From an uncultured Verrucomicrobiae bacterium (GTDB lineage: Bacteria > Verrucomicrobiota > Verrucomicrobiia > Chthoniobacterales > JAATET01): a stretch of 64,000 nucleotides of DNA. The notes under the pieces are model-generated. The model was not told the origin of the DNA, made no database searches, and saw only the letters and a program-made list of their open reading frames with translations. This document shows positions 34,074 through 54,466 of the stretch, piece after piece (position 1 is the stretch's first letter; each line of letters begins with the position of its first letter). A program made the translations under genes and the position numbers. Location of the stretch: contig CAVXHK010000004.1 in the NCBI GenBank assembly GCA_963761705.1, forward strand, positions 80,632-144,631. Direction: 5' to 3'.

Positions 34074-34112
34074 GCCTTGCAATTCCCTTCACTTTCAGTC
34101 TCTCCCCCCAAG

Positions 34113-34826: not shown

Positions 34827-35329
34827 GACGCTCGGTGTCTCGGATCGCTCTCGTCTGCCGAGGGCGGGCGGCGTTTTCGCTCGTCGAGGTGACGCTGGCG
34901 GTGGGTTTGATTTCCTTCGTGCTCGTCGCGCTGCTCGGTCTGCTTCCGGCGGGTTTGAACGTGCAACGCAACGCGGTGCTGGAAGCGCGCTCCACGCAGG
35001 TGTTGAGCGATCTCGCGCAGGCCGTGCGGGGTGTCCGGTTGGACGGAGCGGTCCACCGATTCCCGGCTACGCTGGCGGAGGTCGCCGTGGGCGGCGGCTC
35101 GACGACGCTGCCGGTCGGCGTCGACGGGCTCGTCGACAACCCGGCGGATCGACGCGGCTCGGTGGTGATCGAGCAGCTCGCGGCTCCGGCGGGGAATCCG
35201 GACCTCCTGCCGGTGCGAATTTCGGTGGCCTGGCCGGCGGCGGCGACCTGGGTGGCTTCGGGCGGCGGCAAGTGGAACAAGGCGGACGGACACGTGGAAA
35301 CTTTTGTGTATGCGGAAATTCCTCGATAG
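34823..35329 (+). CDS. Verru_Chthon cassette protein B-like (prepilin-type)
   Basis: AAFSLVEVTLAVGLISFVLVALLGLLPAGL, the typical protein B N-terminus; ATGA overlap with D. Confidence 0.85.
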   Translation: MRRSVSRIALVCRGRAAFSLVEVTLAVGLISFVLVALLGLLPAGLNVQRNAVLEARSTQVLSDLAQAVRGVRLDGAVHRFPATLAEVAVGGGSTTLPVGVDGLVDNPADRRGSVVIEQLAAPAGNPDLLPVRISVAWPAAATWVASGGGKWNKADGHVETFVYAEIPR

Positions 35330-36236
35330 CGACCGACGAGCCTTCACGCTCATCGAGGTGCTCGCGGCGATGGCGGTGCTGTCGTTGCTGCTGGTGATGA
35401 CGTTTCAGATGGTCTCGCAGACGAATCTGGCCGTCGGTGCCGCCGGGGACGAGCGCGCCGCTCTGGCCACCGGGAGCGCGGCCCTGGACCGGATCGAGGC
35501 GGACCTCTCGACCGCGATGCGGGACCGCGGTCTCGCCCTGGTCGCTCGCGACGCCTCGGCGGGCGGGGGCACCGACAGCGCCATCGGGTTCTTGTCGCTC
35601 TCGCGACCGGAAGCCGAAGCGGCGTCGACGACTCAGCCGCGGGGTGCCCTGATCGCCTACGGGATGCGCGCGATCTCCGCGACGAGTGGCGGCACGGCTT
35701 TTTCCTACACCGGTCTCGAGCGGTGGCTCGGGCGGTTCGATTACGCCGACCAGCCGGGACCGGCCTTCGAGGAACTCACCGCCCAGGACGCCGCGGCGGG
35801 GGAATGGACCGCACTGGGGTCGGGAATCGTGAGATTCTGGGTCAGCTACGTGCTGGACGACGGGACGATCGTGCAGCAGCCGCCGATTTATCGGGTGGAG
35901 TCCTCGACGACGGGCAACCCAACGCCGTTCCTCGACGGGCGGGCAATGGCGACGAACTGGAACGCCGTCGCGACCTCGCCGGAGACCGCGGCGACGGCTG
36001 GCCCGCAGCCGGGTCCCTTCGTCCGGTCCCTGCTCGTCGCGGTTGCGGTGGTGAATCCCGGCACGCTGGCTCAGGCCGCCGATGCCAACCGACTGAATGA
36101 AGTCCGCTCCGACCTCGGGAATCCGGACGCCGGTGAGACGCCGCTGGAAGTGTGGGAGGCGGGCGTCGGCGACGTGGGTTTTGCGCCACTTCGCCAGAAT
36201 CTGCGGTTCTTTCAACGAAGCGTTTCCCTGGACTGA
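35310..36236 (+). CDS. Verru_Chthon cassette protein C-like (prepilin-type)
   Basis: RAFTLIEVLAAMAVLSLLLV, ALDRIEADL and C-terminal RFFQRSVSL. Confidence 0.82.
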   Translation: MRKFLDSDRRAFTLIEVLAAMAVLSLLLVMTFQMVSQTNLAVGAAGDERAALATGSAALDRIEADLSTAMRDRGLALVARDASAGGGTDSAIGFLSLSRPEAEAASTTQPRGALIAYGMRAISATSGGTAFSYTGLERWLGRFDYADQPGPAFEELTAQDAAAGEWTALGSGIVRFWVSYVLDDGTIVQQPPIYRVESSTTGNPTPFLDGRAMATNWNAVATSPETAATAGPQPGPFVRSLLVAVAVVNPGTLAQAADANRLNEVRSDLGNPDAGETPLEVWEAGVGDVGFAPLRQNLRFFQRSVSLD

Positions 36237-36240
36237 TCCT

Positions 36241-39200
36241 ATGACGACGACTTGCTCCCTGCGCCCGCCTTCTCTCCGTCGCGCCTCCGACGGCGTGGCG
36301 CTCGTCATCACTCTGGCGATGATCGTTCTCCTGACGGCGTTATTGATTTCGTTCTTCAGTGCGGTGACGGCGACTCGCAAGACACAGGTCGCGCGTAGCG
36401 GGGGGACGAGCGCGACCCTGCTCGCGCAGGGCGCGCTGGCCGCGATCTCGGGCGATCTGCGTGCAGAGATCCGGGAGAATTCGACCCCGGTCACCGTCGG
36501 CTCGCCGGCGTTGACGTTCCATCGTCCGAAGACGACCGCCGACATGCGACCGGTGCGGGCCCTGCCCTCCGCGGTCGGCTTGGCGGACGAGGATTTTTTG
36601 AATCTCGTCAAACAAAGCGGCGAGCCGTTCTCCAGCGCCGCCGCGATCTTCGATTTTGCGGCGACCAACAACTCGTCGACGGCGGCGCCCAACAAGCGCG
36701 TGGTGAGCCCGGCGCGGTGGACCGCGCCGATGCTCACGGGTGCGCCCTTTGCCGCCAGCCAGACGCCGCGCTGGATCTACGTGAACAGCGACGGCTACAG
36801 CGCGACGGCGGGCGCGACGACCATCGGGCGGGTCGCGTTCAACGTGTATGATGTCGGCGGTCTGCTGGACGCGAACGTCGCCGGCTTCGGCGCAATCAAC
36901 GGTGGCCAGACCGAGCCAACGGAGGTCCGCACGAAGGGCGACGCGGTGTGGGCCGACCTGCGCGTGCTTCCGGGGATCGCCGCGACCGCCTTTTCCTCCG
37001 CCGGAGTGGCGGCGCGGACGGCGTGGCCGCCAGGGTGGCGGCTGACGGGGGACTGGGGCGATTTCGACGTGAACTCGGCGGCGCGGCTCCATTACGAGCG
37101 ATCCGGTTGGCGGCGGCCCTTCGTGACGGCGGGCGGGGCGGCGTCCGACCGGATGTTTGCCTCGCGGCAGGATCTCGTCCGCTACGCCCGCGCGTTTCCA
37201 GGCACCTTCGTCGCGAATGCCGACGGCACTCTGCCCGCGCTTCAGTATCTCACGACGTTCAGCCGCGACCTCGACCGACCGAGCCACGAGCCCGATCCGG
37301 ATCGTCCGAAGGTCGGCGCGGACAGCCCGAGCGGTGGCAACGATGCGAACGGACTGGACAACGATCTCAACCCGTCGCTGCTGACGGAGGTCAAGGGTGA
37401 CGGAACGCTCGCCATCAAACGCCGCTTCCCGCTGTCGCGACTCGAGTTGGTCGCGACGCCGATCCCACCGGCGAACCCGGTCGCGTCCGGGACGGACATT
37501 CGGGAGTTTTTTGGTCTGGAATGGAACCCGGCGGCGAACCGCTGGATCTACGACCACGGAGATGCCGCCGACATCCTTCCGCTGGTCGATGTGCCCGCGG
37601 ATCGCGATCCCGATTTCTTCGAGTTGCTGAAGGCGGCGATCACGGTCGGCAGCCTTGGCAAACAGTTGGGAGTGACCTTCCCGGGTGCCCACGTTGGGCT
37701 GGCCGATCTGCCCGCCCGGCTGGGAGGCGTCGACGGATCGGTGAACTACCAGATCGTGCAGATCGCGGCGAACATCATCGACCAGGCCGACGCCGACAGC
37801 TACCCGACGCGCATCAATTTCGACGGTCGTGACTTCTACGGGCAGGAGGATTTGCCGGGGCTCTACCGGGTTCGCGAGCGCAATTTTCTGATCGGCACCA
37901 TCCCCGGCTTCGGGCCGCGACCGAACGACGCCAGCCCCCCGTATGCGCAATCCCTCCTCCAGGTGCTCATGCTCCAGCCCACGGTCTGGAATCCGCATTC
38001 GCCCTCGACGGGAATCGGTGGCGATGCGCCCACGGAGTTTCGAATCGTCGCGGATACCGTTACGCCCGTTCGCTACGAGGCGCAGTATTTCTGGCCGGCG
38101 GTGGTTCCTCCCGGGTCGCGTCCGCCGGTTGCCTGGACGTCGGATTTTTCAGCGCGTCCGAATGGTCCGAATTGTGATCGACCGATCTCCTACAGCGGCG
38201 GAGAGGGCGGGCTGAGCGGATTGGCCAGTGCCTCGATCACCTTCCAGGCGGACTCGAGCGCCTTTCGGCAACCCGTGGCGCTGGCGTCGCCGGGCCACCC
38301 GTCCGGCAGCAACGCGGTAGGATTTCCCAATTCGCCGGACATGGGAGTCAGCGACGCGGCGGCACCGGGTGTCCCTGACACAACGGTGAGCGTTCAGACG
38401 ATTGTCAACCGGCAGACTCCGGTGCCCGCCAACGTGGCTCACGACGCCCCGGCTCCTTCGCCCCGAGCCGAGGCGTTGGGATTCGTGGCCGGTTACCTGC
38501 CCGCGGGTCCGCAATATGGCATGCCCCCAAGCCTTGCGTATTACCTCAATCTGCGGAGGCCGCAGGGTGGACCGGTCTCCTTCAGCCTCCAATATCGGCA
38601 GGGTAGCTCGGATACTTGGTGGACCTTCGACAGACTCAGCCAGAGTCTCGCCGCGAACGAGCAATCCGCCGCGCAGATCCAGGCGTGGATGACGGATCGA
38701 ATCGATCCGCGCACCGACCGCTGGGGAAGCTGGTATTCCCTCGTCGCGGCCAACGTGCCGCAATACGAAAACTACGTATACAATTTCGAGCTGACTGCGA
38801 ACCCGGTCCCCGGTGCGTTCCCCGCTTTTCTCGCCAGGGATCCCGCGGGTGCCGCCGCGACGGGCTGGAGCGGGCTGGCGACGGGCGCGCAGTTTGGATC
38901 GCTCCAGCGAAATGGTCCGAGTGATTCTCTCCGCTACGCCGATCCCGATGGAGTGCGCCGGGGCGGGACTGCGAAGTTTGCCGTCGATGGGTCCAGCCCC
39001 GGCTGGCCGATGCACGAGGGCAACACCATGAGTCGTCCGACGATCCTCGACCGGCCCTTCCGCTCGGTCGCGGAGCTGGGCAATGCCTTTCGCGGAACGC
39101 CGTGGCGGAATCTCGATTTCATGACACCGGCGAGCGGCGACCGCGCGTTACTGGACGTCTTCCGGGTCGGGGAAGGCCCCGACGACGCGTTGGTCGCCGG

Positions 39201-39687
39201 GCGCGTGAATCTGAATACCCGGCAGGCGCCCGTGATCGCCGCGCTGGTGGCGGGTGCCGGACTGGTCGGCGGTGCGCAGATCGATGAATCCACCGCACTC
39301 GACATGGCGGCGGTGCTCACGGAATTCACCGCCAGCACGGACGCGGGGAAGGGGCCGCTGCGCGACCGATCCGAGTTGGTGGGGCGCTTCGTGAGTGGGA
39401 CAAATTTCGTCGGGGTTGTCAGTGATGACGACGATTTGATGGCCGATCTGCTTGATGGCTCCGACCAACCCATCGAGCGGAATCGCGACGTCGTCATGGC
39501 CGCGCTGGCGGACGCCGGCACGGTGCGGGCGTGGAATTTCCTCGTCGACATCATCGCACAATCCGGGCGCGTGTCGGACTCCGGCGACTTCATCCCGACC
39601 GGCGAGAGCCGACTCTGGCACTCCTTCGCCATCGATCGGTTCACGAATCAGACGCTCGATCAAACCACCGAAATCTCCCTCGAATGA
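36241..39687 (+). CDS. Verru_Chthon cassette protein A-like (large, PilX-like N-terminus)
   Basis: DGVALVITLAMIVLLTALLISF, PRWIYV, GRVAFNVYD, QIAANIID, RPFRSVAELG, GRVNLNT and GESR. Confidence 0.85.
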   Translation: MTTTCSLRPPSLRRASDGVALVITLAMIVLLTALLISFFSAVTATRKTQVARSGGTSATLLAQGALAAISGDLRAEIRENSTPVTVGSPALTFHRPKTTADMRPVRALPSAVGLADEDFLNLVKQSGEPFSSAAAIFDFAATNNSSTAAPNKRVVSPARWTAPMLTGAPFAASQTPRWIYVNSDGYSATAGATTIGRVAFNVYDVGGLLDANVAGFGAINGGQTEPTEVRTKGDAVWADLRVLPGIAATAFSSAGVAARTAWPPGWRLTGDWGDFDVNSAARLHYERSGWRRPFVTAGGAASDRMFASRQDLVRYARAFPGTFVANADGTLPALQYLTTFSRDLDRPSHEPDPDRPKVGADSPSGGNDANGLDNDLNPSLLTEVKGDGTLAIKRRFPLSRLELVATPIPPANPVASGTDIREFFGLEWNPAANRWIYDHGDAADILPLVDVPADRDPDFFELLKAAITVGSLGKQLGVTFPGAHVGLADLPARLGGVDGSVNYQIVQIAANIIDQADADSYPTRINFDGRDFYGQEDLPGLYRVRERNFLIGTIPGFGPRPNDASPPYAQSLLQVLMLQPTVWNPHSPSTGIGGDAPTEFRIVADTVTPVRYEAQYFWPAVVPPGSRPPVAWTSDFSARPNGPNCDRPISYSGGEGGLSGLASASITFQADSSAFRQPVALASPGHPSGSNAVGFPNSPDMGVSDAAAPGVPDTTVSVQTIVNRQTPVPANVAHDAPAPSPRAEALGFVAGYLPAGPQYGMPPSLAYYLNLRRPQGGPVSFSLQYRQGSSDTWWTFDRLSQSLAANEQSAAQIQAWMTDRIDPRTDRWGSWYSLVAANVPQYENYVYNFELTANPVPGAFPAFLARDPAGAAATGWSGLATGAQFGSLQRNGPSDSLRYADPDGVRRGGTAKFAVDGSSPGWPMHEGNTMSRPTILDRPFRSVAELGNAFRGTPWRNLDFMTPASGDRALLDVFRVGEGPDDALVAGRVNLNTRQAPVIAALVAGAGLVGGAQIDESTALDMAAVLTEFTASTDAGKGPLRDRSELVGRFVSGTNFVGVVSDDDDLMADLLDGSDQPIERNRDVVMAALADAGTVRAWNFLVDIIAQSGRVSDSGDFIPTGESRLWHSFAIDRFTNQTLDQTTEISLE

Positions 39688-42024: not shown

Positions 42025-44096
42025 AGAGTTTGGCGATTTTCGCGGTCGGGCTGTTGCTTGCTGGATCGGGCCGGGCGGAAATCGGTCTTGATCCGACGAA
42101 CTCGAACGATGTCGAGATCACCGAGGAGGCGAGTGGGATCTATTCCATTGTCACGACCGGCCACGATCCGTGGGTCGTGACGACACCCCTCCCCGCGGGC
42201 ACCGACGTCGTCGCGGAGCCGGTGCTGAGTTTTGAATACTTCTGCGCGGCGGGAGTGACTGATCTCACGGTGTATTTCGGTCCGCCTTGGCGCGAAGCGG
42301 CCAGCCTCTCGGGTGGCGCGATGGCCCGCGCGGAGACGTGGCAGCCCTTCGCCGTGGATCTGAGCAAGAACGAGTTGGCGGCAGAGGGGTTTCGGCAACT
42401 GCGACTCGACACCGGCGGCCAGCCCGGCGTGAAGCTGCAGGTGCGCGGCCTGCACCTGCGGGCACCGACAGCGGAGGAGCGGCAGGGAGCCGAGGCGCGG
42501 CTCGCGGCGTTGGAGGCCAAACGCGACGCGGCAAGGCGGATGCGGGGGTATCTCGACGCGAAGCTCCCCGGTGAGATCGAAGGTGTGCAGGTCGACGCCG
42601 ACACGGTGGAAATCACGGGTAAGGCGCCGCCGGACTCGTGGCTGGCAGAGATCGAACTGCACGAACAACCGTGGGCACTGGAAGAGTTCTCTCGCGTGAA
42701 GGAGTTGGCCGGAGGGGAATTTCGAATCGAACTGCCGCGGAAAGCCGGAGCGACGGATCGGATCTTTTCCCGCTGGGCCGTCGTGCGCCGGGTCGGCGAT
42801 GGGTTCCGTCTCGCCTCGCACGCCAAGGCCGCGACCGACGTCACGGGTGCGCTGCGTCGCGAACCGCCGACCCCGATGACGCCAGCCTCGAAGAAAGGCA
42901 TGGCCGGCGTCGATCTCGACGACGATCTGCCCGAACTGCTGGAGCTCGGCGTCCACAACATCAGCGTGAACTTCGTCCTCTCCGCGCTCCTGCTGAGGCC
43001 GGACGCCCGGGGCGGCATCGATTACGAATACGAAGGCGAACGGTTTCGGATCAACGAGCGGGCGTTGGCACGGCAGGATCGTATCGTCGAGTGGGCCACG
43101 AGTCACGGCGTTGTTGTCACCGGGGTCGTCCTCGTGCGGCTGCCAGTCGATCCGGAGCTGGCTGAGTTGCTCGCTTACCCCGGCGGCGGGGCACCCGGAC
43201 TCTACGTGATGCCGAACCTCGCCACGCCCGACGGCTCGCGCGCCTACCGGGCGTTGCTGGAATTTGTGGTGGAGCGGTATTCGCGAGCCGACCGGGAGTT
43301 CGGCTCGGTTGAACGCTGGGTGATGCATAACGAGATCGATCAGGCCTGGGTCTGGACGAACATGGGTGAGCAGCCGATGGAACTCGTGATGGACGTCTAC
43401 GTCCGGTCGATGCGGGCGATGCATAACACGCTGCGGCAATATGATCCGACCGCTCGGACGTTCATCTCGCTCACGCATTTTTGGACCGATCCCGCCGAGC
43501 CGGACTTCCGCCAATACCGACCGAGGGAGATGCTTGACCTGCTGGCTCAGATTGGCGAGGCCGAGGGCGATTTCGAATGGGGCGTTGCCTATCACCCGTA
43601 TCCCGAGAGTCTGTTCGAACCCGCGACGTGGAACGACACGGCGGCGACGTTCGACTTCGATACCAAAATGATCACCCCGAAAAATATCGAAGTGCTGCCC
43701 GCTTACCTCGCCCAGCCGCGGTTTCTCTTCAGAGGACAAACCCCGCGCACGATTTTGTTGACCGAGCAGGGCTACCACACGAAAGACGACTCGCCGGAGA
43801 CTCAGGACATCCAAGCGGCTGCCTTCGTTTACACGTGGCACAAGATCAGGCCCCTTCCGACAATCGAATCGTTTTTGAACCACCGTTGGAAAGACCACCC
43901 CGGCGAGGGCGGACTGCGACTCGGGATCCGCGGGTTTCCAGCGCCACCGGAGAAACCGATGGGCGACAAGAAGCGTTCGTGGGAAGTCTATCGCGCGCTC
44001 GACACGCCCGACGAGATGGATGAAACCGACTTCGCAAAGGACATCATCGGAACCAACAGATTCGAGGAAATTCCGCACGACGGCAAAATCGAGTGA
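42021..44096 (+). CDS. Secreted DUF5722-like protein, probable clan GH-A hydrolase with an N-terminal beta module
   Basis: Signal peptide, SKKG, WVMHNEID, VAYHPYP and ILLTEQG. Confidence 0.75.
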   Translation: MKSLAIFAVGLLLAGSGRAEIGLDPTNSNDVEITEEASGIYSIVTTGHDPWVVTTPLPAGTDVVAEPVLSFEYFCAAGVTDLTVYFGPPWREAASLSGGAMARAETWQPFAVDLSKNELAAEGFRQLRLDTGGQPGVKLQVRGLHLRAPTAEERQGAEARLAALEAKRDAARRMRGYLDAKLPGEIEGVQVDADTVEITGKAPPDSWLAEIELHEQPWALEEFSRVKELAGGEFRIELPRKAGATDRIFSRWAVVRRVGDGFRLASHAKAATDVTGALRREPPTPMTPASKKGMAGVDLDDDLPELLELGVHNISVNFVLSALLLRPDARGGIDYEYEGERFRINERALARQDRIVEWATSHGVVVTGVVLVRLPVDPELAELLAYPGGGAPGLYVMPNLATPDGSRAYRALLEFVVERYSRADREFGSVERWVMHNEIDQAWVWTNMGEQPMELVMDVYVRSMRAMHNTLRQYDPTARTFISLTHFWTDPAEPDFRQYRPREMLDLLAQIGEAEGDFEWGVAYHPYPESLFEPATWNDTAATFDFDTKMITPKNIEVLPAYLAQPRFLFRGQTPRTILLTEQGYHTKDDSPETQDIQAAAFVYTWHKIRPLPTIESFLNHRWKDHPGEGGLRLGIRGFPAPPEKPMGDKKRSWEVYRALDTPDEMDETDFAKDIIGTNRFEEIPHDGKIE

Positions 44097-44165
44097 GCTG
44101 ATTACGTAGAGGAATGACGAACCTCTTATTTACGTTTTGAGGATGAATTGGATGCCAAAAATCTA

Positions 44166-44354
44166 GGTTCTTCGGCGTTTTGAGTGGGTAGCGGTGCCAA
44201 TGTTGCTCTGCCCCCTTATGGGGCGACAGGCGATCCCCAACGCAACGCCCTCAATTTCAGCAGTTAAGGGGTTGCGCCGGAGATCTCCTGTCGCCGGGAA
44301 GGGGTCAGCGCTTCGCGGACAGGTTGGATTACCTACTCCAAACAGCGAAGAACC
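44166..44354. mobile_element. MITE-like non-autonomous element (189 bp, 25-bp TIRs, 8-bp target duplication)
   Basis: Left TIR GGTTCTTCGGCGTTTTGAGTGGGTA vs reverse complement of right TIR GGTTCTTCGCTGTTTGGAGTAGGTA (21/25). AAAATCTA flanks both ends directly (44158-44165, 44355-44362). Confidence 0.8.
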
Positions 44355-44620
44355 AAAATCTATCGAGTTCGTCGCTTGAATCTCGTCCCCGTCCGGTTCG
44401 GCGAGATCAATTGGGAAGGCGGTATTCAATGACGGTTCGACATTGGACGATAGTTGCGTCGGGGATTCAGTCGTCGCGGGATACGACCCGGGAGTGCTCT
44501 GATCAGTCAAGTCCGATAGTTGGCAGGAGTATTTTATAGTCAGAGAGTTACATCAACTTTAAGATTCGAATAAAATCAGAATGTTGAAAAATCAAGAAAT
44601 TCTGGATACCTTCAATCACC

Positions 44621-44845
44621 GTGTTGGTCGGCCAATTCATCGACGAATTTCAGAAGCTCCCCGCTTACCCCTGGCTCGAAGAAGAGCAGACGAAAGTGGC
44701 GGACAGGGCGTTCCGTCGTGTCTATGCCGTGCAGGTTCGTCCGCAATACAAAGATGATCCTTTCTTGGCTGTTGTGCATTGGCTTCTGCGCCCCCGGACG
44801 CGCTGGCAAATTATGTTCTTGGAGACACTGATCAGAGTGAAGTAG
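44621..44845 (+). CDS. Short ORF, possibly the frameshifted N-terminus of the large recombinase
   Basis: Protein-like composition; overlaps the 44779 ORF across a C5 run (44791-44795). Confidence 0.35.
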   Translation: MLVGQFIDEFQKLPAYPWLEEEQTKVADRAFRRVYAVQVRPQYKDDPFLAVVHWLLRPRTRWQIMFLETLIRVK

Positions 44846-47800
44846 CGCGGGGAATTCTTTACGTCCTCGGCTACCAAACTGAGGCACATGGCTACACGAT
44901 TCCGCAGAGATCGGCGGTTGCGCTTATTGCTCGGAGACTCATGTGGATCTCGGGGACCGGCGTGAACGTTGCTAGCCGAAACAGCATCACCTCCCTCCTT
45001 TCGGGCCATGGAGTTTGGCGTGTTCCTCGTCCCGGTGTCTCTGCGCCAATTGCTGACAATACTCGTCAAGCCAGCACGGTTTTCAGGAATTGCCACAGGG
45101 CCACCGCGATGGATTTGATCGAAAAGTCCGTTCATTTTCTGGCCGGGCACGATGTTTTCAGCGGTGCTTTTGATGAAGAACAGATGGACGTCGCCAAAGA
45201 TCGGGACCTCGAATTCTCACTCAGCTTCTACGGAGATCGCGTAGGCTTTGGCGTCGATCAAGTTCGAGGCGCTGATGATTCTCCCGGAAAAAAGTCGCCG
45301 CTGGCACGCGTTCATGCAGTCAACGCAGCGGTGACAAGCTTTCTGGCGCCGGATCCCCGCGGCTTGCTGGCAGCAAAGCATCTCCTTGAAGCTGCTCGAA
45401 ATTCGACTCGTCAATTGCAGGCAAAATTCCCGATTCGGGACGGACGGATGCGCTATCGCTCGGCGAGGCTGCTTGCAGGCGCAGTCTCGGCTTTGACCGG
45501 CGTCCCGCTTGAGCAAGTAGTCAATATTGCGTTGTTTCCCCCAGAATCGATTGAGGCCGGATTTCGAGCATTTCAAGCGTCCGGAAATGAAGAGTCGCGA
45601 AGGATCATTGGATTTTTAGCATCTTGGGCCGAGCTAGGATCGCTACGAATGCCGTGTTTTCAGAACGGATTGGACACTAAGTTCGAGCCATTCTTCTTGG
45701 TGCTCTTCATCGGACCATCCGGAAATCCTGGTTTCAAAAGCCGTATAGCAGATCAATATATTGTCGCTCCGCTACCATTTCTTTCTCAGTTGATCCATCA
45801 GGTCCGGGATTTGGTTGGTCAGGGAGCAACCGAGACATTCGCGACCACTATCAGTGGGGATTCTCTTGGGAAGATCAATGGGGATTCTCTAGGGAAGATT
45901 CGCTACGGTTTGGTCAAAAGTGTTCCAAATCCCTACGGCGAAGCGTCTCCGCACTGGCGGCACCAAATTTTCCAACGGTTCATCACCTTGCCCCACTCGG
46001 GATTTGTCTACGCGGCTGCTGTCGAGTGTGGGATCCCCCCGCCAGTCTTGTCATTGATGATCGGACGACCATACGGCCCTTGGCGCGCAAGCCTCAACTA
46101 CGCCTGTGTTTCTGCCGAGACGATTGCAGCAGCATTCGTGGCGGTGCAAAGCGTTCTATTCGGCGAGACGGGTATCTCCCGTTCGACGCGCATAACCGTT
46201 GCGAAAAATATGCCAGTCGGCGCAGGTTTGCTTCGGGATCGGCAGATTGGCCCTCCGGGTCTACCGACGCTCGAAGAGCTAGGTCCGGTCGGCCAAATGG
46301 CAGCAAAAACTTGCGATTGGCTTCCAATCAAAGCGGCGCAGACGGATCGTTTGATCCGGATCTTTGGGCGCAGATACTCATCAGAAATTCCCAATCCAGC
46401 GAACCACTTGATTGATGAGCAAAAGGTTTTTCGTTTCGAAGACAAGAATCTGGGTGGACGCGCATTTCCCCGGCTGCTCCCAGTCCCAGAAGACCTGAGG
46501 CGGTTTCTCGCTGAAGGCGATTGGTCATTCGGTCCAAGTAGGATTGGAGTTCCGAAATCTGCTAAACAAGAGGTCGAACGAATCCGGGCGTTCAGAGGAG
46601 ATCGGAACGGCGGACGTAAGGCATTCTATTCGGAGTGTCTAGCTCGCGGCCTTGGGGATGAAATGATTTCATTCCTGTTCGGCCACGGGTTCGCTTTGAC
46701 CAAAGCCTTGGGGCCGATCTCTCCGTTGCCGTGGTGTTGGTTTCTTTTCGAGGCACAAGGCGTGGTCGATCAGGTCGCTCAGCAGGCAGGTTTGAAAGCT
46801 TCGATTGATCGCTTGAAACCCCCGTCTGTTCACCAACTCAAGCGAGCGAAACTCGCTGAAGCGGGAAGTAAATCGAAAGAACGGAAGATTTTGAGTTGGG
46901 CCGAATTACCCGGCACAATCCAACACTTGCCGATTCCTAAGGCAGACGAGCTTGAGTTTCTCAAGTCGTTGTTGAATGTAATCGAAACGTCGTGGAACGA
47001 ATTCCGCAGACATCCTGAGCAACTCAAAAAAGTTCTCTATCTACTTCTAATTCTCGGAGGAGTTCCGCTGAACCATGTCCAAGCCTACGTTCGATATCTT
47101 CGCGGGAATTCAGTCGTGCGAAGTAAGATAAGCGGAAAGGCGGCTTATTTCGTGATTTTTCCAATCCCCCAACAAGACCAAGGACTGGGTCTGGTGCCTC
47201 TACGATTGTCAGACCGAATCGGCCGACTGCTGTTTCTGACTCTGCGATGCATCTACGTCGGAGAAAGAAAGAATAGGGCTATTGCTGCGGACAAGTGTCG
47301 CTTCGAGCATCGAATTGTTTTGCGGGGGTTCAATCGTCACGGAGACGATGAAATGATTCGCTTCGCAAGATCGCTGGTCCGTCGATGTTCAGATGTTCGC
47401 ACCGAGGTGTGGGTGCGTAATGTGCTGACCACAGGATCCAAGTTCTTAGCGCGATCCCGTTTTGGAGGATTAATCTTCGGATCATTGAGCGGTCGAGGAA
47501 TCAAGCCCTGCAACTTTTTCGATATCCAAGATCTGTTTTTTCAAGTTTTTGGGGCGGGAGTATTGCTCACAACGGTCACCGGAGGCATTTGGAAGAATGT
47601 TTTTCTTCCGGGACCGCGAGATATTTCGAAATATCGGAGCTATCAAAGAATGGTGAACTCCAGTGGACGCGGACGCCCATCCACCGCGCAGTTTCCGGCA
47701 ATGGGGCTGTGTTCAATTGAAGGATTGACAGAGTATTTCCGGGGCGCTCATCGCTTTCCAGATTCGGGCCAAATCTGCAAGCAAATCGAATACTTTGGCT

Positions 47801-48618
47801 GCTACACGTCCAAGGCAGCCAGCAATAACGGGTCTCCCGAATATCGAAGAAGCTCGCTGTCAACAGCTCGTCTGATCATGAAATCCCTCCGAAACCAGGG
47901 AAAGCTGTTCACCGGTCGTGCAGAACACCTGTTGTGGCCTCGACACACTCTGCTGTTCCTCGAAAAATTCGAAGAAATTTTGGCGAAATCTGCGAAGCCG
48001 GACCAGAAGCGTTCTGCGCTTTGGTGGGCAACTTTAGCTTTATTAGTTGGGTGTCGGGCAAATGAGGCTGCATTGATTCTAGAGCAGCATATCGATAGTC
48101 TGGCGAATCCGAGGATTGTCCGCATCAACGGAAATAAAACCGATGCAGCGTCCCGCACCGTCCATCTTGGATTGTTCAGCTCGGATCCGGTCGGGGAGGC
48201 GCTGCTCGAAAGATTCTTGATTCAAGGTAATGGGCGTTGGATTCCCGCTGATCGCAACTTCCCGATCAGAGGAGAGGCATTCCAGCGGAGCGTAAACGAA
48301 TGGGTCCATGAAGCCTACAATGTTGTCCGGGCGGACCTCGGTATGTCAGAGACATCGTTCACGTTCACGCTTCAGAGCCTGCGCCACGCGTGCGCGTTTC
48401 GGGCCGTTCAACAAGCGATCTATCGCGCACTATGGACAGGCACGTTGTGGATTCAGCTCGCTTCCGTCAGTCAGGCGCTTGGGCATCAGTCGATGGTCAC
48501 CACCCTCTCAAGCTATCTCGGGACTTCCATGCTTTGCCTAAAATGGCCCTCACTGAGAGGCGACTCGGAAGGATACACGCCGTTAGGGAGTCCTCTGCCA
48601 GATCTTCTGGAGCGTTGA
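44779..48618 (+). CDS. Very large tyrosine-recombinase-family protein (intact catalytic domain at the C-terminus)
   Basis: 1279-aa ORF with C-terminal LLVGCRANE, NKT..A.RTV, QSLRH and LGHQSMVTTLSSY. Confidence 0.8.
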   Translation: MASAPPDALANYVLGDTDQSEVARGILYVLGYQTEAHGYTIPQRSAVALIARRLMWISGTGVNVASRNSITSLLSGHGVWRVPRPGVSAPIADNTRQASTVFRNCHRATAMDLIEKSVHFLAGHDVFSGAFDEEQMDVAKDRDLEFSLSFYGDRVGFGVDQVRGADDSPGKKSPLARVHAVNAAVTSFLAPDPRGLLAAKHLLEAARNSTRQLQAKFPIRDGRMRYRSARLLAGAVSALTGVPLEQVVNIALFPPESIEAGFRAFQASGNEESRRIIGFLASWAELGSLRMPCFQNGLDTKFEPFFLVLFIGPSGNPGFKSRIADQYIVAPLPFLSQLIHQVRDLVGQGATETFATTISGDSLGKINGDSLGKIRYGLVKSVPNPYGEASPHWRHQIFQRFITLPHSGFVYAAAVECGIPPPVLSLMIGRPYGPWRASLNYACVSAETIAAAFVAVQSVLFGETGISRSTRITVAKNMPVGAGLLRDRQIGPPGLPTLEELGPVGQMAAKTCDWLPIKAAQTDRLIRIFGRRYSSEIPNPANHLIDEQKVFRFEDKNLGGRAFPRLLPVPEDLRRFLAEGDWSFGPSRIGVPKSAKQEVERIRAFRGDRNGGRKAFYSECLARGLGDEMISFLFGHGFALTKALGPISPLPWCWFLFEAQGVVDQVAQQAGLKASIDRLKPPSVHQLKRAKLAEAGSKSKERKILSWAELPGTIQHLPIPKADELEFLKSLLNVIETSWNEFRRHPEQLKKVLYLLLILGGVPLNHVQAYVRYLRGNSVVRSKISGKAAYFVIFPIPQQDQGLGLVPLRLSDRIGRLLFLTLRCIYVGERKNRAIAADKCRFEHRIVLRGFNRHGDDEMIRFARSLVRRCSDVRTEVWVRNVLTTGSKFLARSRFGGLIFGSLSGRGIKPCNFFDIQDLFFQVFGAGVLLTTVTGGIWKNVFLPGPRDISKYRSYQRMVNSSGRGRPSTAQFPAMGLCSIEGLTEYFRGAHRFPDSGQICKQIEYFGCYTSKAASNNGSPEYRRSSLSTARLIMKSLRNQGKLFTGRAEHLLWPRHTLLFLEKFEEILAKSAKPDQKRSALWWATLALLVGCRANEAALILEQHIDSLANPRIVRINGNKTDAASRTVHLGLFSSDPVGEALLERFLIQGNGRWIPADRNFPIRGEAFQRSVNEWVHEAYNVVRADLGMSETSFTFTLQSLRHACAFRAVQQAIYRALWTGTLWIQLASVSQALGHQSMVTTLSSYLGTSMLCLKWPSLRGDSEGYTPLGSPLPDLLER

Positions 48619-49061
48619 TGACAGTTTTCAGAGTAACCAAATCACCGCTTTGATCGGTTCTCTCCCGATCTAGTCAGCGTTTGCAACTCGCCCTCGATCT
48701 GAAAGCGTCAACGGCGCCCGCTATTTGTTTCGGTTGAACCGTCAGATGAACAATCCATTGGGTTGAAAGTCAAATCCGGAGAACACCGGATTGCCTCCAG
48801 CGGGGAATCGATCGCTACCTTCGCGCACCGCGAAACGGTTGCGCGAGAGGTTTGAACCCATTCTGAGTTGCGCGTTTGCCGTAGAACACGAAAGTCGCTT
48901 CGGGTATTCCGCGAAGCGGGGAGGAGGCTGTGGTTACGTTCCGGCGAGGCTTCGCTCAAAGTGCAGGAAAAGTATTCAAAAAAAGGCTCTGCTGAAGGTC
49001 CGCTGAGTTTCCGTGCACGCAAGCGCGAAAGCTCCGAGGAGCGTCTCAGTATCTTGGTGAT

Positions 49062-49661
49062 ATGTATTGCGGAGCACGCCCCTTTGAAAGCCAGGACGAA
49101 ACGATCCGATTTTTGGCGGCCATCGAAGGCACATTTCGTCGGCGGGATCGCGCCCTCGTAACTCTGGGCCTCTACTCCGGATTGAGAGTCGCGTCGGCGC
49201 TCAGTCTTCAAGTGGGGGATGTCTATGACGGTCGTCGATTCCGAAAAACGATCCGAGTCGCACGTAAAGCCATGAAAGGGAAGCGGGCCAGCTTCGTAAT
49301 TCCTCTGCATCCACGCGCTGCGATTGCGATCGGTCGGTGGATGGTCGAGTTGCGTCGCCGTGGGATCAACCTCGACCCTCACCTTCCCATCTTTCTCAGT
49401 CGCCAGCGCGGCCACGCAATGACGGTGCGCATGGCTCAGACGATGATTGCCAAAGCCGTCAAGAAAGCAGGATTAGCGTCAGGGCTTTCCTCTCACTCGT
49501 GGCGAAAAACCTTTGCCATTCGGATCTACGAGGGAAGCGGGCATTGCCTAATGACGGTGGCGGAAGCGTTGGCGCATGGATCGTCCGATTTGAGGACCAC
49601 CGCGAGATATCTCCGGTTCAGGCTCACTGAAAAGGCGGACCAGGCAATTTTGAATCTATGA
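49062..49661 (+). CDS. Small tyrosine recombinase (catalytic domain only)
   Basis: RDRAL, SGLRVA, MKGK, SHSWRKTFA, LAH and TTARYL, giving the R-K-H-R-H-Y set. Confidence 0.92.
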   Translation: MYCGARPFESQDETIRFLAAIEGTFRRRDRALVTLGLYSGLRVASALSLQVGDVYDGRRFRKTIRVARKAMKGKRASFVIPLHPRAAIAIGRWMVELRRRGINLDPHLPIFLSRQRGHAMTVRMAQTMIAKAVKKAGLASGLSSHSWRKTFAIRIYEGSGHCLMTVAEALAHGSSDLRTTARYLRFRLTEKADQAILNL

Positions 49662-50026
49662 ACACAAACCCAACCCCGCGAAAGCACATCACTCAGGCCC
49701 ATCGGTATCACACTTTGTCGCCCGGGCACCCGCAAAGACCTCAACCCCTGCGTCGTGATCAACTGGGCCGATGGATTTTCTCCGACGGCTCGCACGTTGC
49801 TTACGATGCGACTGGCCAGCCCATTTTTGGCCGTTACCACGAGGGAGAATGGGCGGCTCAGGAAATTTCCGCGCGAGATCTCGGTCGGGCGGATCGCCTC
49901 GAGCGTCGGAAAATGCGTCCGGAGTTTCTTCGCGCTACGGCGAAGTATCCATGGCGGATTCGCGAAGCCTACCGCAACGGCTTTTTTTCTATCGCGCCTT
50001 GGCAACCAGGTGCATGCCCGGGGTGA
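49658..50026 (+). CDS. Hypothetical protein
   Basis: ATGA overlap with the recombinase stop; no recognisable motif. Confidence 0.45.
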   Translation: MNTNPTPRKHITQAHRYHTLSPGHPQRPQPLRRDQLGRWIFSDGSHVAYDATGQPIFGRYHEGEWAAQEISARDLGRADRLERRKMRPEFLRATAKYPWRIREAYRNGFFSIAPWQPGACPG

Positions 50027-50066
50027 GGGAGGGCAACTGGTAAGAATGAGTCCGGTATCTTCCACT

Positions 50067-50773
50067 ATGAACGAAAATACCAATTATGACCTCAAAGCAT
50101 TATACCGAAAGTTGCTGCGGAAATTCCATCCCGACATGACGACGGATCCAGAGCGTAAAATCGAGTATGGCGAGCTGACGAAAGGAATTATCGATGCGTA
50201 TAAGAACAGCGACTTCGATGCGCTGAAGCTGATTGAAATTATGGGCCTAGCGTATCACTCGCCCAATCCGCCAGATACGTCTGCTGACGTGGATTATAGC
50301 CCGCCGCACTCTGTTTGGCGCCGCGTTCGGGAAAGCGTTTGGTGGGCGTTGCTCAATCCATATGGGCTGTCCGGCGCTCTACGCGAGTGGAATCACAATG
50401 GCCGTTTCTACAATTCTGTCGCCTTGGCGGGCGGTGTGGCTTGGACGTGGCTGGTTATCGAAATTTGGATCGGAATTGGCGATCTGTCGCGGTGGTTGCA
50501 GCAGGCTGGGTTCAGTCATGAGGGACCGGTAGGGTTTGCTTTGGTAGTCGTTCGCGGCGTCTTGATTTTGGGGGCATTTCGAGTGGTCGTCCCAGTTGCG
50601 ATCGTCGCATTTCAATGCGGTCTTGTGATGGCAGTGGGCGTGGTCGCGTGCTGGGTCGCCTCGGTGGTTCTTGGAGCGTTCACCCCTATCTCGCGGCGGT
50701 TGTGAAAGTCGTCTTCGCCGCTTTCGCCGTATTGCTTGCCTGGAAGTATCTCGCCGAAAGTGATGAGGACTGA
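50067..50773 (+). CDS. J-domain (HPD) protein with C-terminal TM helices; apparent frameshift near 50680
   Basis: LKALYRKLLRKFHPD...IIDAY followed by hydrophobic helices. The in-frame stop is at 50705, but the -1 frame continues HPYLAAVVKVVFAAFAVLLAWKYLAESDED to TGA at 50773. Confidence 0.7.
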
Positions 50774-50882
50774 TTAGAGGAGAGTCGTTCGATCACAATT
50801 GAGCATGTAGCCGAACCCGCAACTCGTTACACAGACAGACAAGTTGCGATTCCAAAATGAGGTTTTCGAGGCAAACGCCCGG

Positions 50883-51410
50883 TCATCTGCGAGTCCGCCG
50901 GAGCGAGATGTCGAAATCTGGATCGACGATGGCGAAGTGTGGCCCGGTGGCGGTGACTTTAAACCTGCCGCGGATGGTGATCCTGCGCTTTCTGACGATG
51001 AACTCGATCGTTCCAGCCGACTCGGTTCCGATCCAGTTTTTCCTTTCAACCTTGGCGACAATGCGACGTTTTCCTTGCCGCCACCATTTTCCGTTTCCTT
51101 GCGAATCGATATATTCGGTCGGATCTCCCTGATACACGACGATCTTTCGATTTGGCGACAAGGTCGTAGTGACTGTCCTATGTGCGCGGTCCGATTCGGG
51201 CCCCTCCGGCTGGTAACTGTATTTTTCTTCAAACTCGATAGCTCCTCCAGATTCGCGGACTGAGACCTTGGTTGCGTATGACTCAGGTCCGTCGAATCTG
51301 TAGTCAGTCCGAGTTCCGAACCAATTCCCCGTGGCAATTGATATGGGTTGTGCCGTCGCGATGGAGATTCCGCAGAGGATGGTCAAAAGTGCAGCAGTAG
51401 TGGTTTTCAT
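50883..51410 (-). CDS. Secreted hypothetical beta-rich protein
   Basis: Signal peptide MKTTTAALLTILCGISIATA from ATG at 51410. Confidence 0.7.
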   Translation of the reverse strand: MKTTTAALLTILCGISIATAQPISIATGNWFGTRTDYRFDGPESYATKVSVRESGGAIEFEEKYSYQPEGPESDRAHRTVTTTLSPNRKIVVYQGDPTEYIDSQGNGKWWRQGKRRIVAKVERKNWIGTESAGTIEFIVRKRRITIRGRFKVTATGPHFAIVDPDFDISLRRTRR

Positions 51411-51417
51411 AGATGTG

Positions 51418-51714
51418 TTAGGTTGCTGTGTTGGCAGGGCTGTTCTTGGAGGAGCGGTCTGGAAGGAGGCGGACAATGAGCCCTCCGACGAGGAAAATGA
51501 GTCCAGTCGCTCCCCAGAATGCGCTATGGCCCCTCGCGCGAGCGACGACCGCGAGGCCGCCGAGGTAGAGACCTAGTCCGATCAGCGCGAGGATTGCGAA
51601 GACTGTGCTGACTCCCGTTCCTCCTGAGAGACCGAGCGCGCCACCGATGAAATTGGGCACGATGAGAAGTAGCAAGCCGAGGACGATAAGGGTTTTTGAA
51701 GTGTTGTTTTTCAT
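51418..51714 (-). CDS. Small membrane protein (about 3 TM helices)
   Basis: Hydrophobic helices with ARARGHSAFWG...LLPD; 7 bp from the next gene. Confidence 0.7.
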   Translation of the reverse strand: MKNNTSKTLIVLGLLLLIVPNFIGGALGLSGGTGVSTVFAILALIGLGLYLGGLAVVARARGHSAFWGATGLIFLVGGLIVRLLPDRSSKNSPANTAT

Positions 51715-51728
51715 GGATATATCAGTTG

Positions 51729-52088
51729 TTAGTCGAGGTCCCACGTTATGCTGCCCCGGTCGGTATAGACCGTGACGGTTAGCGCCTTTACGCCGAGGGG
51801 GTTGTCGAGAGCGAACCCATCGCCGGGCTCGAGGGTGGTCGGCGTGAATTCTCGTTTTCGTGGGTCGTAGAGCACTCGGGTCAGCTCGAAATCGTCGTTC
51901 ACGACAACACGCTGGATCGTAATTGGGCGTTTCTCTCGATTCTGAAAGGAGAACGAAATCGGCGTCCCGAAGAGCGTGACACCGTTCAATTCAATGTCGG
52001 GTCCGGCAAGGTTGCAGCCGTTCGCGAGAGTTCCGATTACCAGAATTGCAGTCGCGGTCTTCAGCCTCCGGTAGACTTGCGCTGTCAT
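51729..52088 (-). CDS. Putative lipoprotein
   Basis: From ATG at 52088: basic n-region, hydrophobic stretch and lipobox-like LANGC. Confidence 0.6.
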   Translation of the reverse strand: MTAQVYRRLKTATAILVIGTLANGCNLAGPDIELNGVTLFGTPISFSFQNREKRPITIQRVVVNDDFELTRVLYDPRKREFTPTTLEPGDGFALDNPLGVKALTVTVYTDRGSITWDLD

Positions 52089-52129
52089 CTTTCCGTTGCT
52101 CCAGAGCGTAACTATCGTTCGTTTGATGG

Positions 52130-52213
52130 CATCCGACATATTGGATGGAAGATGCTTCGCACGATTTTAAATGCCGCGCAAGCCCAAACATCCAACATCT
52201 TGGATATTGGATG
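52130..52213. promoter_or_regulatory. Palindromic operator array ATCC[AG]A-N4-TTGGAT
   Basis: CATCCGACATATTGGATG (52130-52147) and CATCCAACATCTTGGATA (52189-52206), plus an extra TTGGATG half-site, between divergent genes. Confidence 0.65.
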
Positions 52214-52228
52214 TGATTGCCTTCTGGA

Positions 52229-52492
52229 ATGGAGAGTTTGCTCGAGCAGAAGTTCGCCGAGTTTCTGCGGCAGGCGCGAGGCGATATGTCCTACGTTGAA
52301 TTCGGTCGAAGGTTGGGCGTTTCGAAGAGCACACTACACTGGGCCGAGAACGTGCGGGGGCGGGTCTCGCTGAAGTTGGTCGAAGAGGTCGCGAGAAAAC
52401 TGAAGGTCAGCTTGGTTGACGTGTTCGGCGATGCCGCCACGGTCAAATTTTCGACGGTTCGTTCAAAAAGAAGATCTACTGGCGGGTCTTGA
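52229..52492 (+). CDS. XRE-family HTH transcriptional regulator
   Basis: LRQARGDMSYVEFGRRLGVSKSTLHWAEN..VSL...VARKLKVS. Confidence 0.85.
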   Translation: MESLLEQKFAEFLRQARGDMSYVEFGRRLGVSKSTLHWAENVRGRVSLKLVEEVARKLKVSLVDVFGDAATVKFSTVRSKRRSTGGS

Positions 52493-53262
52493 AGTTGCTG
52501 TTCGTGGGCGCTCGAAACTAGCAGCAGAGCCGGAAAGGTCGCGCTCACCGCTCGCTCTTGAGCCGGTTTTCGATTTCGCGTTGATGCCAATCGGCATAGC
52601 GGCTCTCAGCGTCGAGGATTCTTCGATAAAAGGAGGCGAGGGTGATGTTTCGTTCGCGGATCGCCACAGCTTCTTCCGCCGATGAGCGGCGATAGCGATA
52701 CGACTCCTTGAGTCGCATCGCTCGTGTGGCCTCTCTCTCGTAGACCGGCTTCGCGAAGGAGAGTCGTCGATACCCAATCGTAGGTGGACGGGCTGAGCGC
52801 ACCCGCAGATCGAAAGATGGCTTCAGAAAGGTCGGACTCGCGATGCCGTTGCGGGGGCCGATCAGTCGAGCGCTTGCGAGCAATCCATGGCTTGGTTTCG
52901 GTGAGCAGAGGCCCTCTAGGCAATCGGAGAACGTCGCGGATACCCCTGCAAGGCCGATGTGACGAGTGCGGGGTCCCCGCGATTTTCACGACCAATGGGA
53001 GGGGACGAGCGGCTGACCTTGGATCCTGATGGAGGTGCGGGTCGCGGGGGAACTTTGGATCTGTTTTTCCCAAGTTTTCGAGTTTCGCCCGAAAAACGCG
53101 GACTTCCGCGGGACAGGATGACCGGTTGCTCGCAAGGAGAAAGCGGCCCCACGGTTCTCCAGACGAGCCGCGCCAAAACCCATTGGCCCTTTCAAAAACG
53201 GATTTTAGCACAAGGCGTTTAGCACAGAGGGCTCCGGGTGGCCCGGAAACCCTGTATCCGCC

Positions 53263-53336
53263 TCGGGCTGGCGGGATTCGAACCCACGACCTCCTGAACC
53301 CCATTCAGGCGCTCTACCAAGCTGAGCCACAGCCCG
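53263..53336 (-). tRNA. tRNA-Pro (GGG)
   Basis: CGGGCTGTGGCTCAGCTTGGTAGAGCGCCTGAATGGGGTTCAGGAGGTCGTGGGTTCGAATCCCGCCAGCCCGA: acceptor stem CGGGCTG/CAGCCCG, anticodon loop AT-GGG-GT, TTCGAAT T-loop; CCA not encoded. Confidence 0.97.
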
Positions 53337-53431
53337 TTCTCTGACGGATGTCCCGGCGTCTCGGGACGAGCTTCAATAAACTCGCTGGGTCCAGACTGGT
53401 CAATGGATTTTGGATCGGCATACTCGTCTCG

Positions 53432-54466
53432 ATGGAAGTTGTGAAGGTGGCGGTTGTCGGTGCCAATGGTTACTCGGGCGAGGAGTTGTGCGCGATACTC
53501 GCACGGCATCCGGGCGTCGAGGTGGTCACGGTGACGTCTCGACAACACGAAGGAAAACGGGTCGGCGAGGTGATGCCACGGCTGGATGGCGTTGGGGAAC
53601 TGAGCAATCTTCAATTCATCGGTCCGAAAAGCGGGGGCTTGTTTGGAGGAGAGGCGAAGTTCGTTTTCTTGGCGCTACCGCACGGTTTGGCGAGCGAGTT
53701 CGCGTTGCCGCTGGTGGACGAGGGCAAGCGGGTCATTGATTTGAGCGCGGATTTTCGTTTGCGAGATCCAGCGGTTTTTGAGGAATTTTACGGTGAACAG
53801 CACCCAGCTCCCGACCGCCTAGCCGAGTCGGTCTATGGGTTGCCGGAATTGCACCGCGACGCGATCCGGGCAGCTGATTTGGTGGGCTCGGCTGGATGTT
53901 ACCCAACGAGCATCCTGCTTCCGCTCGTGCCGCTGTTGCGGGATGGTTTGTTGGACGTCCGCTCGATCGTGGTCTCGAGTGCAAGCGGGGTCTCTGGGGC
54001 TGGTCGGAAAGCGGACGTTGGATTGTTGTACGGGGAGTGCAACGAAAGCCTCCGGGCCTACGGCCTGCCGAAGCACCGACACTTGGCGGAGATCGAGCAG
54101 GAGTTGAGCGCGGCGGCGGGGGGGAGAGTGGTCATTACGTTCGTTCCACATCTGGCTCCAATGACGCGGGGTATCCACACGACGACGTTTGCCGGACTGG
54201 CGAGGGGAGTGAACTTCCCTGAGGTGGTTGCGGCATTGGAGGCAGCTTACGAGGAGGAGCCATTTGTGCGTTTCGGGGACCGGCTTCCTGACACAAAGTC
54301 AGTCATGGGCATGAATTTCTGCGACATCGCGGCCCGCTGGGACGAGCGGGCAGAGCGCCTAATCCTGCTCAGTGCCGAGGACAACCTTGTGAAGGGCGCT
54401 GCGGGTCAGGCGGTGCAGTGTTTCAATTTGATGGCGGGCTTTGATGAGACGTTGGGATTGAGCTGA
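53432..54466 (+). CDS. argC: N-acetyl-gamma-glutamyl-phosphate reductase
   Basis: VVGANGYSG, FLALPHG, IDLSADFR, GCYPT, SGVSGAGR and DNLVKGAAGQAVQ. Confidence 0.97.
   Translation: MEVVKVAVVGANGYSGEELCAILARHPGVEVVTVTSRQHEGKRVGEVMPRLDGVGELSNLQFIGPKSGGLFGGEAKFVFLALPHGLASEFALPLVDEGKRVIDLSADFRLRDPAVFEEFYGEQHPAPDRLAESVYGLPELHRDAIRAADLVGSAGCYPTSILLPLVPLLRDGLLDVRSIVVSSASGVSGAGRKADVGLLYGECNESLRAYGLPKHRHLAEIEQELSAAAGGRVVITFVPHLAPMTRGIHTTTFAGLARGVNFPEVVAALEAAYEEEPFVRFGDRLPDTKSVMGMNFCDIAARWDERAERLILLSAEDNLVKGAAGQAVQCFNLMAGFDETLGLS

Follow-up and report, generated by a model that had tools for sequence, protein, structure and literature searches.

We analyzed a window of 64,000 nucleotides (nt) from the genome of an uncultured Verrucomicrobiae bacterium (G000; contig CAVXHK010000004.1, positions 80,632 to 144,631) and, within it, one gene, here called the giant, which had been proposed from the DNA letters to encode tandem tyrosine-recombinase domains. 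Coordinates are those of the window unless another contig, genome or locus is named, and residues are numbered throughout according to the annotated open reading frame (ORF) of 1279 amino acids (aa).

The giant gene and its predicted folds

The gene and the parts of its product are as follows.

44779..48618, + strand: ORF of the giant, 1279 aa as annotated
44621..44806, + strand: probable start of the gene (N-terminus), read in another frame than the rest, with a one-base gap at about 44807
45334..46101, + strand: unit 1, aa 186-441, predicted catalytic fold ending in Tyr441 (46099-46101)
46255..46797, + strand: unit 2, aa 493-673, with R532 (46372), K556 (46444), R613 (46615) and H636 (46684)
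46930..47550, + strand: unit 3, aa 718-924, predicted catalytic fold with Pro763 at the Arg position
47689..47913, + strand: helical segment that aligns with part of the lambda Int core-binding domain
47914..48555, + strand: unit 4, with R1093 (48055), K1120 (48136), R1202 (48382), H1236 (48484) and Y1246 (48514)

The reading frame is preserved end to end in relatives that share 62%, 38%, 38% and 35% identity with the giant, and the ORF is a real gene, beyond chance. All motifs named in the original prediction were found in place. Unit 1 contains ALTGVPLEQV (45490), ITLPHSGF (45982), LSLMIGR (46048) and NY (46096-46101), and unit 2 FGRRYSSE (46363), FEDKN (46435), PRLLPVP (46468), NGGRKAF (46606) and GLGDEMISFLFGH (46648-46686). 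In units 3 and 4 we located LILGGVPL (47047), GCRANE (48049), GNKTD (48130), QSLRH (48373), LGH (48478) and the terminal Tyr (48514). A 24-nt in-frame tandem duplication within unit 1 (45850-45897) is not found in the homologs.

The annotated start, a TTG at 44779, is most likely not where the gene begins. Homologs carry about 60 extra N-terminal residues, which match 44627-44806 in another frame; a tblastn search with the homolog P0003 gave 46% identity over 81 aa from 44627 onward, in a frame different from that of the giant ORF. A single 151-nt contig of run X2 (depth 2) has an additional base behind 44807, and although a contig of such low depth is weak support alone, the extra base sits exactly where the homologs predict it. 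On the basis of the homolog match and the extra base, the gene likely starts near 44621 and encodes about 1,332 aa (read through with an X at the break). The one-base gap at about 44807 is likely an indel introduced by the assembly.

No repeat was visible by sequence, as the units are too diverged: BLASTP self-comparison of the giant found no internal repeat, and hhalign comparisons between units were not significant (E 0.024-0.23, best 0.024). AlphaFold models built on a 28-row alignment reached a predicted local distance difference test (pLDDT) score of 84.3 and a predicted template modeling (pTM) score of 0.89 for aa 165-1265, and 84.0 and 0.87 for aa 174-685. When these predicted models were aligned with solved structures, all four units matched tyrosine-recombinase catalytic domains, with best Z-scores of 9.4, 11.0, 8.9 and 13.0. 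Unit 1 matched XerH (Z 9.4, root-mean-square deviation (rmsd) 3.8, 167 residues aligned) and Cre (Z 9.1, rmsd 4.1, 177 aligned), and unit 2 matched XerA (Z 11.0, rmsd 3.4, 155 aligned) and Brujita Int (Z 10.7, rmsd 3.8, 155 aligned). Unit 3 matched XerD in one row (Z 8.9, rmsd 3.5, 150 aligned). Unit 4 together with a partial core-binding domain (971-1259) matched lambda Int (Z 13.0, rmsd 3.5, 220 aligned); model range 807-1095, comprising the helical segment and unit 4, aligns to lambda Int 109-356. An unbiased search of 48,161 chains returned recombinases, topoisomerase IB, protelomerases or Ndc10 in nearly all of the first 33 rows. Foldseek gave no match at E ≤ 0.001 for either model, and its top rows were recombinases. 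For unit 4, the family profile hit IntI4 (E 7e-6) and XerH (E 8e-6), and phrog_1 matched at E 3e-5.

Judged from these models, the giant almost certainly contains four tandem recombinase catalytic folds, which supports the proposal of tandem folds arranged as a single-chain pseudo-oligomer. Three of them are predicted within residues 186-924, that is, in the N-terminal region of about 1000 aa on which the original prediction had been staked. The sequence LILGGVPL, noted there as a possible further box I, belongs to unit 3.

Family, conserved residues and split relatives

A search of 1.84 billion representative proteins yielded 32 relatives of the giant at E ≤ 0.001, comprising close full-length proteins, more distant proteins with lengths of 1,200-1,450 aa, and shorter ones of either about 560 or about 680 aa, each class corresponding to one half of the giant. 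Searches of genomes yielded further full-length members in Verrucomicrobia. Multi-unit matches were present in 7 of 401 genomes of the order (the other 11 matches were weak and covered unit 4 only), in 4 of 401 of the class and in 1 of 401 of the phylum (Verrucomicrobia); these counts include the genome of the window, and no more than two candidates were scored per genome. A pattern scan of GTDB gave one locus, and a word-based search with a wide profile returned 4 close members only. No second giant was found in G000, none of 59 pattern matches on viral contigs was confirmed, and a search of plasmids gave no match. Genome G411 carries three giants (C97, C129 and C15), two of which are 58% identical. 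The family escapes annotation: Pfam, NCBIfam and PADLOC gave no match for the window's protein, and none of 22 scanned proteins matched a PADLOC defence family (2023 library, E 0.05). Atlas neighbours of the giant are clusters of 845-1467 aa with PF00589 (score 0.95-0.96), and those of units 1-3 are unnamed clusters of 470-616 aa (score 0.96); these may point to a wider distribution.

Conservation was assessed in 16 non-redundant full-length members with pairwise identities of 15-62% (median 19%). Left out were P0005, P0018 and P0036/P0041, which duplicate included rows, and the copy in G616, which consists of three overlapping pieces (L069 6912-9792) owing to decay or an assembly error. The family tree is a quick tree with long branches, and no order of events was taken from it.

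Only 14 columns are invariant in this set. Eight of them lie in unit 4 (R1093, E1096, K1120, R1126, R1202, G1235, Y1246, G1248). R52 and R53 belong to the N-terminal domain. The remaining four are Y441, which closes unit 1, and R532, K556 and R613 of unit 2, where H636 is kept in 15/16. Among the 29 tyrosines of the window's protein only Y441 and Y1246 are invariant, and among its 49 lysines only K556 and K1120; just two of its 27 histidines, H636 and H1236, are present in at least 14 of 16 members. R436 was invariant in a first set (15/15) and was dropped when more diverse members lowered the count to 12/16.

Unit 4 keeps the catalytic R, K, R and Y in 16/16 members and the box-II His in 15/16. 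It holds the tyrosine-recombinase set R-K-(H)-R-H/W-Y within one domain, which none of units 1-3 does in cis. The box-I Arg position is unconserved in unit 1 (Pro in 8/16) and is Pro in 14/16 in unit 3, which by its sequence is catalytically dead. Unit 2 has no conserved Tyr, and in the window's protein no Tyr lies 8-14 residues after its His. Given the conservation of R532, K556, R613 and H636 on one side and of Y441 on the other, unit 2 would offer a pocket but lack a nucleophile, unit 1 would offer a nucleophile but lack a pocket, and we infer that Tyr441 is the trans nucleophile for the pocket of unit 2. With R, K and R invariant in unit 2 and Tyr invariant in unit 1 (16/16), a second, composite active site of the Flp type, formed by units 1 and 2 of one chain, is likely. 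The earlier statement that only the last domain is catalytically intact therefore holds for sites in cis, but overlooked this second set.

Alternatively, unit 4 alone might cut, and units 1-3 might serve as a DNA clamp or scaffold, or as a TnsF-like target selector for an adjacent DDE transposase and ATPase. Unit 4 alone is complete in cis and alone scores with family profiles. A Mu-like DDE transposase, an AAA ATPase and an unknown gene (the DDE trio) come immediately after the giant in 4 of 11 genome loci, and in TnsF a recombinase fold has been recruited as target selector (PMC10293859). This explanation is improbable: it leaves unexplained that, except for R52 and R53, the invariant Tyr, Lys and Arg outside unit 4 make up one catalytic set at canonical positions in a family of 19% median identity.

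Split forms of the gene bear on the composite site as well. At loci L013 and L014, the giant is encoded by two genes that overlap by 4 nt, with the break inside unit 2, between the hairpin of K556 and the helix of R613. The same break point is found in nine other proteins, four of about 560 aa and five of about 680 aa. The two halves were predicted to bind each other with a score of 0.68, against 0.01 for the best of 3 controls. Of solved complexes, 116 of 157 attain this mark, as do 2 of 215 mismatched pairs. Prediction runs agreed in at least 74% of contacts, and the partner pLDDT was at least 73. In the confident predicted interface, one chain contributes Y445 (unit 1), R526 and K552 and its partner R44 and H67; these residues are the equivalents of Y441, R532, K556, R613 and H636. 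Split gene B at L013 (1245-3348) has a frame break, due to decay or an assembly error.

Possible mode of action and comparison with known systems

In the synapse of tyrosine recombinases, four subunits form a ring in which two diagonal ones are active at a time. We propose that the giant is a four-fold chain with two likely sites (unit 4, and unit 2 with Tyr441) that acts as a one-molecule synapse for mobile elements, a proposal we regard as evenly balanced between right and wrong. It draws on the four predicted folds and the pattern of conserved residues, on the occurrence of the gene in both fused and split form, and on its settings in mobile DNA. Tyr441 would be handed to the pocket of unit 2, as between the subunits of Flp or SSV1 integrase, in which the pocket likewise comes from one fold and the Tyr from its neighbour (PMC4381057, PMC3646895). 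Units 1-2-3-4 would be placed like the four subunits of a synaptic tetramer, with the live pockets 2 and 4 on the diagonal and the dead units 1 and 3 between them, and the half-of-the-sites state would be fixed by the gene. If this ring order holds, one strand pair would be exchanged and the reaction would stop at the Holliday junction; the giant would cut and swap this pair, not the second, and in this way make or resolve a Holliday junction. Completing the exchange would fall to replication, to a host resolvase or to another recombinase. The outcome might be a copy-out circle, or the resolution of cointegrates or multimers, for elements with their own integrase or DDE transposase. In its widest form the idea is tentative, and we would sooner doubt than assert it: a natural single-chain recombination tetramer with gene-encoded half-of-sites activity might represent an undescribed class of one-way recombinases for one strand pair, used by several kinds of mobile elements, each fold reading a different DNA arm so that sites could be fully asymmetric.

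In the textbook picture, a tyrosine recombinase works as a tetramer in which the subunits are active in turn; the giant would depart from this, with four folds fused and two sites fixed. If the proposal is true, each position could be mutated separately, and half-of-the-sites control as well as cis versus trans cleavage could be tested in one molecule. The protein could also serve as a starting point for recombinases that are asymmetric and work in one direction, and it may explain the division of work in multi-integrase elements (SE, GMT, GInt, RIT).

Both sites could instead act on one duplex, where a staggered double cut would end in hairpins, as made by protelomerases, or stay open, as with a nuclease or topoisomerase, possibly in defence. 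A protelomerase dimer uses two active sites, TelA and TelK are among the fold matches (Z 4.5-9.0), a ResT/TelK cluster is an Atlas lead for units 1-3 (score 0.90), and the giant's neighbours are often toxin-antitoxin or defence-type genes. However, protelomerases ranked below integrases for every unit, no long palindrome of the telomere-site type lies near the gene (43500-53600), PADLOC matched 0/22 proteins, and live pockets alternate with dead folds in chain order. Action on one duplex is thus unlikely.

Several observations weigh against the proposed one-molecule synapse. The interface prediction for the split halves lists Y445 but names no contact partner for it, and the modelled split member has a Tyr 11 residues after the unit-2 His. 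Two proteins that are parts of one fold are expected to pass such a binding prediction, and the pass may stem from resemblance to recombinases of solved structure. In 4/16 members a Tyr lies 8-14 residues after the unit-2 His, so that a cis Tyr is possible there; counting split forms, with the modelled pair included, a unit-2 Tyr is found at one column in 5/18. The first His of H-x-x-R is poorly kept (4/19 in unit 4, mostly Asn in unit 2), and since the members are related, the invariant columns are not independent events. The N-terminal 185 aa gave no significant match to PDB sequences (best E 0.7). In G000, a DDE trio near tRNA-Gly (C1:54389-57596) has no giant beside it. Finally, neither recombination sites nor ends that belong specifically to the giant turned up in 43500-53600, in 24 flanking stretches or in G518.

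Among the fold matches are SSV1 Int for unit 2 (Z 8.3) and Flpe for unit 1 (Z 6.5). The subunits of Flp and SSV1 integrase are single-domain proteins, each with pocket and Tyr, that switch roles, whereas in the giant donor and acceptor would be different folds of one chain, each lacking the other half, with an extra cis site. Strand-biased circularizing elements (SE; IntA-Tfp-IntB-Srap), Gamma-Mobile-Trio (GMT; GmtY/Z/X) and GInts (GinABCD) resemble the giant in combining several recombinase folds, here in several proteins, of which two have catalytic motifs; SEs and GInts additionally encode a dead recombinase-fold protein (PMC10214605, PMC5385486, bioRxiv 2023.03.28.534373). Copy-out or replicative movement is reported for SE and GMT (PMC10214605, bioRxiv 2023.03.28.534373), and SEs have been found only in Gammaproteobacteria (PMC10214605). 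By analogy, the giant may work like these multi-recombinase elements fused into one protein, with a Flp-like shared site. In contrast to the giant, which is one gene or a two-gene split, these elements spread over an operon of 3-4 genes, and their two active recombinases are encoded apart, each with its own RHRY motif. The NCBIfam Gmt models gave no match for 22 giant-family proteins, nor did Pfam, although distant homology is possible.

In a related alternative, the giant would be the full integrase or excisionase of its own nested element, acting as a dimer with four sites, comparable to an operon of the RIT, GInt or Gamma-Mobile-Trio kind whose genes had been fused. SE, GInt and Gamma-Mobile-Trio need two active recombinases plus helper proteins (PMC5385486, PMC10214605, bioRxiv 2023.03.28.534373), and in 7 loci a basic upstream ORF of 247-372 aa abuts the giant's start. 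Moreover, very divergent giants (18% identity between those of G000 and G502) share a slot near tRNA-Pro. Yet no terminal repeats or shared ends were found among the 24 flanking stretches or in G518, and the upstream ORF is absent in G000, G401 and G502; its copies are mostly unalignable (1/21 pairs at E < 1e-3). An element of its own is therefore quite unlikely. RIT elements have three adjacent, overlapping recombinase genes and terminal inverted repeats, an arrangement that was not found in the 11 genome loci.

TnsF/Tsy (Faure et al. 2023), like the giant, are multi-domain proteins derived from recombinases and encoded next to either another recombinase or a DDE transposase system; in TnsF, which targets comM, zinc fingers and tandem core-binding domains are combined with a single (partial) catalytic domain (PMC10293859). 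The giant differs from TnsF in its four catalytic folds, in having no conserved Cys/His (zinc-finger) motif in the N-terminal alignment, and in its tRNA-Pro island. Compared with lambda Int, Cre and XerC/D/H, unit 4 shares R-K-R-H-Y and, together with the helices before it, can be laid over residues 109-356 of lambda Int. These recombinases act as four separate two-domain subunits, whereas the giant, at about 1,300 aa, joins four catalytic folds in one chain and lacks a separate core-binding domain between units 1, 2 and 3. Tn5053/Tn552-type transposons resemble the four giant loci with a DDE trio in having a DDE transposase, an ATPase and a small gene beside a site-specific recombinase, but their resolvase is a small serine enzyme, and no transposon ends were found around the giant. 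Searches of the open full-text literature brought up no account of a four-fold single-chain recombinase; subscription papers and supplements, which lie outside this scope, may bear on novelty. In the classification paper PMC8138268, terms for duplicated, inactive or fused domains occur only in the reference list. The giant is an unusual, testable architecture within the tyrosine recombinase superfamily.

The island and its other genes

The following features surround the giant.

53263..53336, - strand: tRNA-Pro(GGG), integration site; its 3' half recurs at G000:C4:64545-64590, at a distance of 69 kb
G000 C4:64696-66102, outside the window: canonical arm-type integrase, 468 aa, beside the copy of the tRNA 3' half
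53206..53226, + strand: pair of TAGCACA repeats, with a matching pair beside the integrase gene at the far end
49062..49661, + strand: small tyrosine recombinase of the catalytic domain only, 199 aa (PF00589, E 8e-19)
49658..50026, + strand: 122-aa ORF coupled to the small recombinase, recurring in related islands
50067..50705, + strand: protein with a hydrophobic C-terminal half and a weak J-domain (HPD) match that does not reach the family cut-off (PF00226, E 0.002)

The window lies in a 69-kb tRNA-Pro island. The block 44100-53262, which ends at the tRNA-Pro(GGG), has a guanine-cytosine content of 54%, compared with 63% in the window upstream. With the canonical integrase beside the tRNA copy at the far end, integration of the island is explained without the giant, which is probably not the island's integrase; the idea that the giant defines this integrative element is thus not upheld. 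The TAGCACA pairs are likely the arm-type sites of the island integrase. In G401 (locus L006) and G502, a giant lies 6-10 kb from the same tRNA, accompanied by the same J-domain-like and 122-aa genes, and an integrase 70-88% identical to that of the island lies beside a tRNA copy on another contig. No attachment (att) repeat was found near the giant in 43500-53600, no excision joint or circular junction in three DNA runs with low, patchy coverage, and Rfam identified the tRNA only. Just outside the far attachment copy, G000 C4:64500-64590 resembles the tRNA-proximal end of the island (88% over 91 bp), which suggests, at the sequence level, a scar of an earlier element.

The small recombinase at 49062 had been considered as a partner of the giant. 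A homolog was found near the giant in 3/11 genome loci, several of which are cut by contig ends, and G000 carries four further copies and one giant only, indicating that the enzyme is an island module and not a dedicated partner. The recurrent copies in islands of G000 lie at 49062-50026, C4:2-696, C4:2941, C4:7074 and C1:1908064-1909039; in at least three of them, the small recombinase is followed by an overlapping ORF of 110-120 aa that belongs to no known family and could supply its missing DNA-binding or directionality function.

The DDE trio at G000 C1:54389-57596 and at L067, L068, L071 and L073 includes an unknown gene of about 260 aa, and the loci share a GTATCT motif shortly before the transposase start. 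No ends were found for these loci; the trio is possibly an undescribed Tn5053-like family.

Both tRNA-Pro islands, that of the window (34077-39687) and that of G401 (C4:171587-175054), carry pilin-like genes with a prepilin motif together with sugar-use genes as host-like cargo, a cassette that may correspond to the one named Verru_Chthon. Just 5' of the giant, a hairpin-rich stretch of 207 bp (44155-44360) gave no significant Rfam match and is 89% identical to G401 C4:159280-159484, the DNA immediately after the island integrase. Related pieces occur in unrelated contexts in run X1, and the stretch may be a small repeated element. Positions 44367-44491 resemble a portion of the 110-120-aa ORF located after small recombinases (G000 C1:1457-1582, L006 16611-16732) and, from this likeness, look like a minus-strand remnant copy of it.

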